DNA of 64,000 bases, from NCBI RefSeq assembly GCF_041248615.1, contig NZ_CP158426.1. One strand, given 5' to 3'. Below, one piece after another: positions 10,172 to 14,344 of this stretch. Origin of the DNA: Escherichia coli. Its GTDB lineage: Bacteria; Pseudomonadota; Gammaproteobacteria; Enterobacterales; Enterobacteriaceae. A program made the position numbers and the translations under genes. Under the pieces are notes generated by a model. It made no database searches. It was not told the DNA's origin and saw nothing but the letters and a program-made list of their open reading frames with translations. Position 1 is the stretch's first letter; every line of letters begins with the position of its first letter.

Positions 10172-11416
10172 TTAATTACGCAGGGCGCTATTTGCCAGAC
10201 GATCGTCTTCTGCCTGGCAAGCTGCCGCAGTGAACAGCACGTCAGTTGAAGAGTTCAGCGCGGTTTCGCAAGAGTCCTGCAATACGCCGATGATAAAGCC
10301 GACGGCAACCACCTGCATGGCGATATCGTTCGAAATACCGAACATATTACAGGCCAGTGGGATCAGCAGCAGAGAACCCCCCGCCACGCCGGATGCGCCA
10401 CAGGCACACAGAGAAGCCACTACGCTCAACAGCAGCGCTGTGGGCAGATCGACCGGAATACCCAGCGTATTAACCGCAGCCAGCGTCAACACGGTAATGG
10501 TGATTGCTGCGCCCGCCATATTGATGGTGGCACCCAGCGGAATAGAAACGGAATAGGTATCGCGATCCAGATTCAGCTTTTCACAAAGCGCCATATTCAC
10601 CGGAATGTTCGCCGCAGAGCTGCGGGTGAAGAAGGCGTACACGCCGCTTTCGCGCAGGCACAGCAGCACCAGCGGGAACGGGTTACGACGAATTTTCCAC
10701 CACACCAGCAAGGGGTTAACCACCAGCGCCACCAGCAGCATACAGCCAACCAGCACGACCAGCAGTTGCGCGTAGCCCCACAGTGTGGAGAAACCGGTGG
10801 TTGCCAGGGTAGAAGAAACCAGACCAAAAATACCGATCGGTGCGAAGCGAATGACCAGTTTCACCATAAAGGTGACGGCATTCGACATATCGTTGACCAG
10901 GTTTTTGGTTGTCTCGTTACCGTGACGCAGTGCGAAACCGAGGCCAATTGCCCACACCAGGATCCCGATGTAGTTACCTTTCAGCAGCGCGTCGATGGGG
11001 TTGGAAACCATGCTCATTACCAGCCCGCGCATCACTTCGACAATGCCTGACGGCGGCGAAATATCACCCGCGCTACTGGACAAGTGCAGGGTAGAAGGGA
11101 AGGCAAAGCTGAAGACTACTGCGGCCAGAGCAGCAGAGAAGGTACCCAGCAGATAGAGGAACAAAATAGGGCGGATATTGGTTTTCTGCCCGTGCTGGTG
11201 GTTAGCAATAGATGCCATTACCAGCATCAACACCAGGATGGGGGCAACGGCTTTCAGTGCGCCGACGAACAAAGTACCTAACAGACCAACAGCTTCCGCC
11301 GCGGGTTTTGAGATCCATGCCAGAAGAATCCCCAGAACAAGGCCGACCAGGATTTGTTTTACCAGGCTGCCATGAGCCAGACGCCGGAATAGCCCCGGTG
11401 AACGTTGCGTAGTCAT
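10172..11416 (-). CDS. sstT: serine/threonine:Na+ symporter
   Basis: 414 aa, [21 protein letters not shown]; DAACS-family transporter. Confidence 0.92.
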
Positions 11417-11689
11417 TTTTCGATCCTTTCATTGTGTTGTCGCACATCCCTGGTGCGTTCTGTCGACGCGTCTTTCAGGATGTAACAAAGTGTTTGCAAG
11501 GTCGAGTATAAGGAAAGTTACAGCTTCGGAAAGCGAAAAATGCTGGATTTTAAAGAGAGGTCATATTTTGCAACTTAATGGTTACATTTATTTGACATAA
11601 ACAGAGGGAAGGACTGGCTACTAAGGCTGATTAGATAACATATGGGCAAAACTATTTGGAATATGAGAACGGTTGCGCTCTTTTAATGT

Positions 11690-11935
11690 GCTATGCCATA
11701 TAAAGTCACTGGCGCAGGGAGCGCGCAGGGGGCGGCCAATCGCCGCCGCCCCCTGCACCCCCAGGCTCTGGCGAACAAAATCGCCGCTGCGCGGTTCCCT
11801 CAGCTTATCCCTTGCGGCTACCGGGTCGGGCGCAAGGGAACGTCCCTGTAAGATGCCCCCTCGCCGCGCATCCATGCGCGTCGCCCCGGCCTCCAGGGAA
11901 CGCTTCGGCGATTTTGACGCCACCAACACCCGTGC
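11690..11935. repeat. GC-rich palindromic intergenic repeat region (box-type repeat; family not assigned)
   Basis: Nested inverted repeats such as GCGCAGGGGGCGGCC...GCCGCCCCCTGCACCC and TCCCTTGCGGCT...GGCGCAAGGGA in an intergenic gap; overlapping ORFs on both strands are treated as artefacts. Confidence 0.35.
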
Positions 11936-12031
11936 GGTCTTTTTGTAAAGAGCTATAAGCCGATTACATAATTAATAGCTCACCTTTGTCTGGAATGAGT
12001 TATCTCTAGGAATGGCTTAATATACAGCGAA

Positions 12032-12997
12032 TCATTCTCCCCGCTGCTTATCATGCCGATAATTCACCCAGGCGTTGATAATAAATGTCATCACCAGAAT
12101 GCCAAACACCACGCCCAGCGAGACGGCGATTGGAATATGGTAGAAGTCGACAATCAGCATCTTGATACCGATAAACACCAGAATCACCGCCAGGCCATAT
12201 TTGAGCATCGAGAAACGTTCTGCTACGCCCGCCAGCAGGAAATACATCGCACGCAGGCCGAGGATCGCAAAGAGGTTTGAGGTCAGCACAATGAACGGGT
12301 CAGTGGTCACGGCGAAGATAGCCGGAATGCTATCCACGGCGAAAATCACGTCGCTCAATTCCACCAGAATCAGCACCAGCATCAGCGGCGTGGCATACAG
12401 CAAGCCATTTTTACGCACAAAGAAATGCTCGTTGTCGATGGTGTCGGTCATACGCAAATGACCGCGTAGCCAGCGCACCAGCGGCTTGTCGCCAATGCCT
12501 GATTCATCTTCATGGGCCAGCGCCATCTTCACGCCGGTAAACAGCAGGAAGGCACCGAAGATATACAGGATCCAGTCGAACTGCGAAATCAGCCAACTGC
12601 CAGTGAAGATCATGATGGTACGCAGAACAATCGCCCCGAGTACGCCATACACCAGCACGCGCCGTTGTAACGCCGCCGGAACAGAGAAATAGCTGAACAA
12701 CATCAGCCAGACAAAGACGTTATCGACCGCCAGCGATTTCTCAATCAGATAACCCGTGAGAAAGGCCAGTGCCTGTGGATCGGCAACGGCGCGACCTTCG
12801 GTTTGCACCAGATACCACCAGAAAGCGGCGTTAAACAGTAACGACAGCGTCACCCAGACCAGCGACCAGGCCGCAGCCTGTTTCATGGTCATGCCATGTG
12901 CCCCACGACGCCCCTGCAACAACAGGTCGATAGCCAGCATAATGGCGACAACAACAGCGAATCCGCCCCATAGCAACGGCGTGCCGACAGTATTCAT
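12032..12997 (-). CDS. alx: TerC-family membrane protein Alx
   Basis: 321 aa, [29 protein letters not shown]. Confidence 0.9.
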
Positions 12998-13200
12998 AGA
13001 AGTTCCTTACACATAAAAAAACGGCCAACGTCGGAAGACGTCAGCCGCTGCTTTTTATGCATAGACCTCGCCTTCCGGCAAGGTCTCACTTACAACAAAA
13101 AAGGAATACGTCTGCGTATTCCTTTCGGGTTGCCCGGTGACCGGATGTGGTTTTGCACACATCGTAATGACGATCGACCGACAATGAAGTTACTCCCCTT
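12998..13200 (-). ncRNA. alx 5' leader (pH-responsive RNA element, SraF region); boundaries approximate
   Basis: Long structured untranslated region directly upstream of alx in the ygjR-alx gap, where K-12 carries the alkaline-responsive leader RNA. Called from position and K-12 knowledge, not from a structure model. Confidence 0.4.
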
Positions 13201-13279
13201 TGCAGGTAACAAAGTATGACAGACCATTCAGCCAGTCAATGGTCTGTTACATACCTTTTACACTGTTTTACTTTGGCAA

Positions 13280-14266
13280 TTATAGTTTTACGCTATCTGC
13301 CGGAAAAATCACCCCAGTCTGGCTGCGGATCTCGGTCAGCAGTTTGGCGGTGATGCGACTGACCGCCAGCCCTGGATGATCCACCAGATGCTCATCCACC
13401 AGGGTAGCGAACAGCTCTGCTTCGTAGAGCATGGTATTAATATGCTGCGGTTGGGTGAGATCCTGCATCTGGCTGCCACGCGGCACAAAACACACTTTCT
13501 GGCATTCAGACAGTTTTTCAATCACCAGCGATCCCGCTTCGCCCTGAATCTCGCTTGCCAGGACAGAATCGCTCACTTTTGAGTGCTGCAACGTAACGCT
13601 GAAATCACCGTAATCCATCACCACCACGCCGTGGGCATCTACGCCGCTTGCCAACAAACTGGCGGTTGCCTGCACGCTTTTCGGCTCACCAAATAACGCC
13701 ACCGCTGACGCCAGACAGTAAAAGCCGATATCCATAATTGAACCGTTAGAGAATGCCGGATTAAAGGTGTTGGGATTCTCACCATCCAGGTAACGTTGAT
13801 ACCGCGAGGAATACTGGCAATAGTTGAAAAAGACTTTACGCAATTTGCCGACTTTCGGCAGCGCCTGGCGCAGCAAATAAAAGTTCGGCAGGCAGGCGGT
13901 TTTAAATGCCTCAAACAGCACCACCTGATTTTCCCGCGCACAGGCAATGGCGGCATCCACTTCCGCCAGATTCGACGCCAGCGGTTTCTCGCAAATCACA
14001 TGAATTTTATGGCTAAGGAAAAGTTGTGTCTGGGAAAAGTGCAGGGCATTCGGGCTGGCAATATACACCGCGTCAATGGCATCGCTTTCTGCCATCGCTT
14101 CCAGCGACGTAAACAGATGCTCGACAGAAAAATCATTGGCGAAGTGCTGGGCCTGTTCAAGGCTGCGGGAATATACGGCGGTTAACTTGTATTTACCGCT
14201 CTCATGGGCGGCCTCGACGAACTGGCGAGTGATCCAGTTCGTACCAATCACAGCGAAACGTATCAT
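13280..14266 (-). CDS. ygjR: predicted NAD(P)-dependent oxidoreductase (GFO/IDH/MocA family)
   Basis: Start set at MIRFAVIGTNWITRQF (ATG 14264-14266), 328 aa; the ORF track offers a 6-codon longer alternative from 14284. Confidence 0.85.
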   Translation of the reverse strand: MIRFAVIGTNWITRQFVEAAHESGKYKLTAVYSRSLEQAQHFANDFSVEHLFTSLEAMAESDAIDAVYIASPNALHFSQTQLFLSHKIHVICEKPLASNLAEVDAAIACARENQVVLFEAFKTACLPNFYLLRQALPKVGKLRKVFFNYCQYSSRYQRYLDGENPNTFNPAFSNGSIMDIGFYCLASAVALFGEPKSVQATASLLASGVDAHGVVVMDYGDFSVTLQHSKVSDSVLASEIQGEAGSLVIEKLSECQKVCFVPRGSQMQDLTQPQHINTMLYEAELFATLVDEHLVDHPGLAVSRITAKLLTEIRSQTGVIFPADSVKL

Positions 14267-14344
14267 AACGCGTGGATACTCCATAAAGGGATTCTGTCGT
14301 CAATGTAGCACGCCTTTTTCATCTTCGACGTGCGCAGATACGCA

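Follow-up and report, generated by a model that had tools for sequence, protein, structure and literature searches.

The intact alx leader of an Escherichia coli strain, very probably a Mn2+ riboswitch of the alx type

On the minus strand of the DNA analysed here (a stretch of 64,000 nucleotides from Escherichia coli, hereafter the window), the open reading frame ygjR (13280..14284) is followed, across a spacer of 282 bp, by alx (12032..12997, 321 aa) and then by sstT (10172..11416). The alx coding sequence is supported by its reading frame, by the RefSeq annotation and by a match to the TerC family of Pfam (PF03741, E 1.3e-53), and the product of this regulated gene is a TerC-family Mn2+ exporter. 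An earlier note on this DNA had proposed a long 5' untranslated region in front of alx on the minus strand, at 12998-13200. Such a region exists: it comprises 207 nt (13204..12998, with alx starting at 12997), so that the proposed interval captured the right element but clipped its first 4 nt, which belong to helix P1.1. We hold with high confidence that it is the E. coli alx leader (PRE; SraF in its terminated form), an alx-type yybP-ykoY Mn2+ riboswitch that controls the TerC-family Mn2+ exporter Alx in cis.

Positions in the leader are given as nt n = window position 13205-n, whereby +1 is the U at 13204, the A of the start codon lies at 12997 and the AUG occupies nt 208-210. The numbering was fixed by residues that published work designates by number (A11, U35, A37, A132, G134, C135, A137, A149-153, C155 and A156; PMC12153347, PMC3874183); all of these, more than ten in number, fit a +1 at 13204. 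The complete leader (nt 1-207; 12998..13204, minus strand) is delimited by its K-12 identity, by this literature-anchored numbering and by its folding energy (minimum free energy, MFE, of -92.2 kcal/mol, as against -57.2 +/- 4.6 kcal/mol for shuffled sequences; z = -7.6).

Aligned with K-12 MG1655, the ygjR-alx spacer was 99% identical, with three substitutions and no internal gaps over 320 aligned bases, and every published structural element was found in place; the identification as K-12 PRE/SraF was thereby upheld, and the alignment to the K-12 leader that the earlier note had proposed as a check came out decisively in its favour. Locus and strand are those of the K-12 element (Nechooshtan et al. 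2009, 2014; Stephen and Mishanina 2022, 2025), 204 of the 207 leader nucleotides are identical, and hairpins A-D (P3, P4, P5 and P6), terminators B and D, the alternative C/D helix, the Shine-Dalgarno (SD) sequence and the start codon are shared, whereas C24U, A50C and A55C set the window leader apart. All three substitutions fall in the P3 leg: C24U (13181) turns a C-G pair of P3 into U-G (10 further orthologues show the same U24-G71 wobble), while A50C (13155) and A55C (13150) lie within the apical loop region of P3.2, where A55C abolishes the closing pair U48-A55. Together they lower the predicted stability of both conformers by 5.7 kcal/mol and leave the gap between the ON and OFF folds at 15.4 kcal/mol. 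Of 5426 complete E. coli genomes, 5419 contain the 501-base stretch that holds the leader (12900-13400) at 95% identity or more, under the annotation ygjR and alx; the exact haplotype of nt 1-65 was matched in just 4 of the 5426 (megablast with a 65-nt query, for which the 28-nt word leaves the exact-match count alone usable). Judged from sequence, the strain-specific substitutions look benign and functionally neutral, and nothing suggests a loss of function; the alx leader of this strain is intact, ordinary and already known.

Ahead of the leader, a candidate alx promoter was read from the sequence, with a -35 hexamer TTGACT (13234..13239, minus strand) separated by 17 nt from a -10 hexamer TACTTT (13211..13216, minus strand), the latter placed by its position relative to the literature-anchored +1 (13204), which lies seven nucleotides past it. 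A consensus promoter scan found no sigma-70 site on the minus strand, the putative promoter going unflagged because its -10 matches the consensus at only 3 of 6 positions. A perfect 10-bp inverted repeat (ACAGACCATT ... AATGGTCTGT, 9-nt loop; 13247..13219, minus strand), whose loop takes in the putative -35, is located 33 nt past the ygjR stop codon and could be a ygjR terminator or an operator.

Orthologous leaders were gathered in one protein-anchored scan of species-representative genomes, which yielded at least 80 Alx loci in Enterobacterales (Escherichia, Citrobacter, Klebsiella, Enterobacter, Kosakonia, Cedecea, Pantoea, Erwinia and others; Yersiniaceae, Hafniaceae and Morganellaceae lie outside the sample). 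In 80 of the 80 loci listed the leader stands directly upstream of alx, on the same strand, and the gene is preceded by the L1 motif GCAAAGGGGAGUAAC, intact or with one base substituted or missing; leader lengths ranged from 110 to 469 nt. Seventy leaders were aligned (alignment A2), and base pairs were counted on the structure transferred from the literature model. Over the whole aptamer 95.3% of the cells were paired and 24 pairs had changed on both sides, which 0 of 500 shuffles reached, the slid controls giving 26-44% pairing.

Annotation gives no hint of this element: in the two genomes examined, K-12 and the closest genome, NRZ14408, the RefSeq records list neither a riboswitch nor an sRNA ahead of alx. 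The earlier note had named a covariance-model scan with the PRE/alx family as a further check and the lack of a significant hit as grounds for giving up its reading, and taken to the letter this is what was obtained. Rfam 15 contains no PRE/SraF family, and the Mn2+ riboswitch model (RF00080, yybP-ykoY) returned no match at the gathering threshold in the whole window, nor any at E <= 10 on 501 nt or on 141 nt. The positive control, the K-12 mntP leader (L003, 1462-1558), scored 41.6 bits (E 7e-10) against RF00080, under the gathering score of 45. By comparison, a model of our own (R1), built from 66 aptamers (alignment A3) with all Escherichia left out, matched the window with its whole length at 13204..13075 (minus strand; 117.6 bits, E 1.9e-32), as the sole match in 64 kb, and scored 120.5 bits on the K-12 alx leader. 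Since a model free of Escherichia scores this high, and the mntP control itself falls below the gathering score, the RF00080 negative is a blind spot of the model and the element itself is present; hence, a negative Rfam scan must not count as absence. R1 in turn gave no match to the mntP leader at E <= 10, so that the two Mn2+ riboswitches of E. coli go unseen by each other's models.

A few weak Rfam matches (STnc370, STnc240, Spy392987, mir-1179 and others) covered terminator hairpins only and were discarded as chance. Another weak match, to RF02617 (SSRC10, 'Streptococcus sRNA 10'; 13094-13207, minus strand, 16.3 bits, E 0.41), aligns such that GGGAGUAGC, CGUCAAUA and GAGACC fall on L1 and L3 of the alx aptamer, which suggests that SSRC10 may be a yybP-ykoY-type leader filed as an sRNA. 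The crystallographically characterised mntP riboswitch is likewise without annotation in the K-12 RefSeq record.

The Mn2+-sensing aptamer (nt 1-130; 13075..13204, on the minus strand like all leader features below) is outlined by the R1 match and by covariation, and takes the form of a P1/P3/P4 three-way junction, as the alx leader is also described in the literature. P1.1 joins nt 2-8 to nt 122-127, L1 sets nt 9-14 against nt 118-121, and P1.2 joins nt 15-18 to nt 114-117. The 5' strand of L1, GGGGAGUA (nt 7-14; 13191..13198), includes the A-minor adenosine A11 and is invariant in the 70 aligned leaders except at nt 7, where one leader (L081) is short of one G in a G-run; the same motif occurs in mntP (GGGGAGUAG) and in the RF00080 consensus. 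On the opposite side lies GAGACCUUGC (nt 118-127; 13078..13087), the 3' strand of L1 together with the 3' 'switch' strand of P1.1, which is invariant across the orthologues and has alternative partners, pairing with nt 2-8 (ON) or inside hairpin C/P5 (OFF). Its GAGACC (nt 118-123) is common to the alx leader and mntP, with GGGGAGUAA at nt 7-15. P1.1 and P1.2 are about 100% paired and essentially invariant, no pair having changed on both sides, and hence show no compensatory covariation.

The L3 loop, UCAUUAC (nt 35-41; 13164..13170), contains the Mn-coordinating A37 and agrees exactly with the published alx-like consensus (PMC12153347); in the 70 aligned leaders U35, C36, A37, A40 and C41 are invariant and U38 and U39 at least 90% conserved. 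It is enclosed, along with hairpin P3.2 (nt 42-61), by the outer helix and P3.1 of the P3 leg (nt 24-33 with nt 63-71; the leg as a whole at 13134..13181), in which covariation was seen at 5 of the 9 pairs of P3 (99% paired) and at 5 of the 6 pairs of P3.2 (97% paired). P4, or hairpin B (nt 73-112; 13093..13132), is supported by covariation (99% paired at its base, 3 of 4 pairs covarying) and by the terminator scan, as it holds the intrinsic terminator B, made up of a hairpin (nt 79-106) and a U6 tract. The linker between P1.2 and P3 spans 5 nt in the window (nt 19-23) and 4-6 nt in all 68 distinct orthologous leaders, none of which has a P2 hairpin there and which show at most one 1-nt indel.

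Downstream of the junction lies the expression platform, in which two mutually incompatible arrangements can be traced. P5, or hairpin C (nt 119-128 with nt 133-142, GGAA loop; 13063..13086), was predicted in both MFE and centroid structures as the OFF-state helix that takes the switch strand; across the orthologues it is 91.6% paired and forms in the MFE structure of 53 of the 68, with no pair changed on both sides. P6, or hairpin D (nt 157-184), constitutes with its U7 tract (nt 184-190) the intrinsic terminator D (13015..13048), which was recognised by the terminator scan and by covariation (94.6% paired, 3 covarying pairs, and an invariant U-tract core across the orthologues) and marks the 3' end of the ~190-nt SraF RNA. 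Opposed to hairpin D stands the 9-bp ON-state C/D (P5/P6) helix, whose 5' half (nt 128-136; 13069..13077) pairs with nt 165-173 (13032..13040). This helix was adopted from a published model (PMC3874183) and then tested by covariation: it is 98.9% paired in 68 distinct leaders, as against 45-64% in slid controls, with covariation at three pairs (G130-C171 is replaced by A-U in 12 sequences, A132-U169 by U-A in 4, and G136-C165 by A-U in 1).

The terminator scan placed U-tract hairpins at 13126..13099 (B) and 13049..13020 (D), and both agree in position with the terminated K-12 transcripts of ~108 nt and ~190 nt described in PMC9472077. A U-tract of at least 5 U after hairpin B/P4 (13097-13126 in the window) is present in only 10 of the 68 distinct orthologous leaders; Kosakonia and Cedecea are among the taxa whose P4 lacks it, and terminator B is accordingly a trait of Escherichia and a few relatives and not general to the alx-type riboswitch. 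The SD sequence AAGGAA (nt 197-202; 13003..13008) is paired in the MFE structure, where A197-G199 pair with C16-U18 and A202-U207 with G8-U13. This pairing to L1 is 58-79% conserved and free of covariation, and the SD core pairs with nt 25 or below in the MFE structure of only 21 of the 68 orthologues. Thus, terminator B and SD masking are lineage-specific, while terminator D and the C/D helix are conserved across the Enterobacterales sampled.

Left unconstrained, the leader folded into the published inactive conformer, with P3, P4, P5, an extended P6 and the SD region paired with G8-U13 and C16-U18. With P1.1 and P1.2 enforced, ViennaRNA returned a structure 15.4 kcal/mol less stable than OFF, which contained no C/D helix, kept hairpin D, paired the SD with nt 136-142 and left the ribosome-binding site (RBS) occluded. 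Among the suboptimal folds of nt 128-193 (the best 400 of 1,411 within 6 kcal/mol), none had A137 bulged. Given the size of this penalty, the ON state must draw on ligand, tertiary contacts and kinetics beyond the reach of these tools; the modelled instability of the ON fold would be consistent with a need for ligand and kinetic control, and falls short of proving it.

The mechanism that we favour combines what was established here (K-12 identity, all helices, the covariation of P3, P3.2, P4, hairpin D and C/D, and the conservation of L1 and L3) with what the literature reports for K-12 (Mn2+ binding, the pH effect and pausing). Nucleotides 1-127 would fold as a three-way junction in which the leg P1.1-L1-P1.2 docks on the leg P3-L3-P3.2 (stacked with P4), so that docked L1 (GGGGAGUA / GAGA) and L3 (UCAUUAC) may form the metal pocket. 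At low Mn2+ and neutral pH (OFF), nt 119-127 (the 3' strand of L1 and P1.1) would be captured by hairpin C/P5 and hairpin D/P6 would then fold, with two outputs: transcription would end at hairpin D to give the ~190-nt SraF RNA, and in read-through mRNA hairpin D and the freed 5' strand of L1, paired to the SD region, would block translation. In the ON state, Mn2+ held between L1 and L3 would stabilise P1.1 and keep nt 119-127 from hairpin C, allowing nt 128-136 to pair with nt 165-173 (the loop and 5' arm of hairpin D); the terminator would thereby be dismantled and the RBS exposed, Alx would be made and Mn2+ exported. Alkaline pH would favour this state through a rise in cytoplasmic Mn2+ and a pH-tuned aptamer, and the switch would need co-transcriptional folding and RNA polymerase pausing.

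Published work on K-12 supplies the ligand. Direct and selective Mn2+ binding was documented by probing of the K-12 alx aptamer and by the crystal structure of a chimera carrying the alx L3 (6CC1). Translational induction of alx reaches 68-fold by alkaline pH and 21-fold by Mn2+, the PRE being needed for both (PMC10197570), and Mn2+ binding is a prerequisite of the pH response (PMC12153347). The alkaline response itself is ascribed to raised cytoplasmic Mn2+ and to Mn2+ sensing tuned by pH (PMC10197570, PMC12153347, PMC12934788). The label 'pH-responsive', which the earlier note had attached to the leader, therefore describes a response that the literature confirms but is outdated as a mechanism, the element being a variant yybP-ykoY Mn2+ riboswitch.

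Under the original PRE model the leader is a pH sensor without ligand: at alkaline pH RNA polymerase would dwell longer at two pause sites (in hairpins C and D), this alone would steer the RNA into its active fold, and Mn2+ would have no part. The pause-site mutants A132G, C135U and A137G speak for this account (PMC3874183; G134A is also among the mutants of this literature), the corresponding residues are unchanged in the window, and an ON state disfavoured by ~15 kcal/mol fits kinetic control. Yet pausing alone gives no reason why L1 and L3 should be conserved in the 70 aligned leaders, which come from many genera, and the agreement of both loops with the motifs of the mntP Mn2+ riboswitch argues against a ligand-free sensor; moreover, alkaline pH is reported not to lengthen the pauses (PMC9472077), and pH to be unable to activate the switch without Mn2+ binding (PMC12153347). 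For K-12, point mutations of L1 or L3 that destroy Mn2+ binding are reported to destroy alkaline induction as well. We regard this account as very unlikely.

A different reading takes the main product to be SraF itself, a free-standing, trans-acting sRNA of ~190 nt ending at terminator D and meant for other genes, to which the adjacency of alx is incidental. SraF was first found in an sRNA screen (PMC9472077), and a strong U7-tract terminator does yield a species of this size; against it stand the strict same-strand linkage to alx (80 of the 80 loci listed) and the removal of alx regulation by deletion of the PRE (PMC10197570), which together with the points that follow leave it highly improbable. 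The helix that dismantles the terminator (C/D) covaries, which points to selection for read-through control. We know of no trans target of SraF, for which a trans role beside the cis role may still be envisaged. Three open reading frames of 31-35 codons that overlap the leader (13055..13162, 13086..13184 and 12994..13089, minus strand) would be the starting point for attenuation by a leader peptide, whereby the choice between terminator and antiterminator would depend on translation of a short frame. However, the AUG of nt 43-45 falls within helix P3.2 and is replaced in other genera by GUG, AAG, UUG or GCA; leaders differ in the length of the P3.2 loop and of P4 by numbers other than multiples of 3, and the aptamers span 99-150 nt, so that no reading frame is conserved; and the base changes track RNA pairing and not codon structure. 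To such an attenuator we give practically no credence, and the alx-type Mn2+ riboswitch acting in cis is retained as the explanation of the leader.

Set beside the yybP-ykoY riboswitches of RF00080 (E. coli mntP, Lactococcus lactis yoaB, Xanthomonas oryzae), the alx leader resembles them in the L1 motif, in a 3' strand that ends in GAGACC, in the P1.1 switch helix, in an L3 with the conserved C-A dinucleotide (UCAUUAC in alx, ACAUACU in the family consensus) and in its position upstream of a TerC-family Mn2+ exporter gene, the family being associated with TerC, MntP and P-type ATPase genes. A37, the Mn-coordinating adenosine of L3, is present and invariant in the alx leaders. Unlike the family, however, the alx leader lacks P2 and forms a three-way instead of a four-way junction, its L3 is shorter and divergent, its P4 is long (and in Escherichia itself a terminator), and it stays below the 45-bit gathering threshold with no RF00080 score at all. 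As in other terminator/antiterminator platforms (Bacillus subtilis yybP, L. lactis yoaB), a U-tract hairpin (D) and an alternative helix (C/D) are rival folds, between which the ligand-stabilised P1.1 decides; in contrast to these, the output of E. coli alx is mainly translational (68-fold, against about 2-fold transcriptional; PMC10197570), and whereas single-antiterminator platforms make do with one element, alx uses hairpins C and D plus SD masking. As terminator D and the C/D helix are conserved and covarying, while terminator B is confined to 10 of 68 leaders and SD masking occurs in the MFE of 21 of 68 without covariation, it may be proposed that transcription antitermination is the ancestral and general output of the alx-type class and the translational effect of K-12 a later elaboration; we consider this proposal speculative and rather unlikely.

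Several orthologous leaders are interrupted by insertions of 100-260 nt, namely in L004 (Escherichia albertii, 817-1200), L015 and L016 (Siccibacter), L025 and L059 (Superficieibacter), L038 and L056 (Erwinia persicina), where the covariance-model matches are split or weakened to 60-95 bits. By their motifs, these insertions resemble REP/BIME or ERIC/IRU repeats. Most of them lie inside hairpin B/P4, which evidently tolerates very large inserts, and that of L056 lies in the hairpin D region; Phytobacter (L018, L029 and L058) carries a large insert in the apical loop of P3.2. In Atlantibacter sp. RC6 (L031, 1091-1200) the aptamer is deleted between direct repeats of TTGCCGG (E. coli nt 21-27 and 124-130), the remaining leader of 110 nt joins L1 to hairpin C, and the riboswitch has apparently been lost.

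The surroundings of the locus in the window hold other features of their own. The alx-sstT spacer (11417-12031) is 615 bp long as against 398 bp in K-12, from which the final codons of alx diverge as well; the extra GC-rich sequence of ~285-350 bp (especially 11640-11990, minus strand) is an unannotated dispersed repeat found in 1-5 places (median 3) per E. coli genome, one copy of it lying between dusC and yohP in strain gw25. It matches no Rfam family at the gathering threshold, and we presume that it may be one of Rudd's intergenic repeat families. Further along, an ALIL pseudoknot (RF01497; 55553-55669, plus strand, 111.7 bits, E 3.6e-28), which is the frameshift element of IS3-family elements, identifies an IS3-family insertion sequence at that position, and a group II intron catalytic domain (RF00029; 58196-58282, plus strand, 64.9 bits, E 1.7e-10) marks a mobile group II intron at a distance of ~2.5 kb from that insertion sequence.

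The alx-type leader emerges as a three-way-junction variant, and possibly a structurally distinct subclass, that is invisible to the current Rfam model of Mn2+ riboswitches, and routine annotation consequently misses both E. coli Mn2+ riboswitches (alx and mntP). A family devoted to alx-type leaders could be seeded with the alignment of 70 leaders and with the model R1. For the strain itself current understanding is unchanged: it keeps an intact copy of a well-characterised regulator that ties manganese export to alkaline stress.
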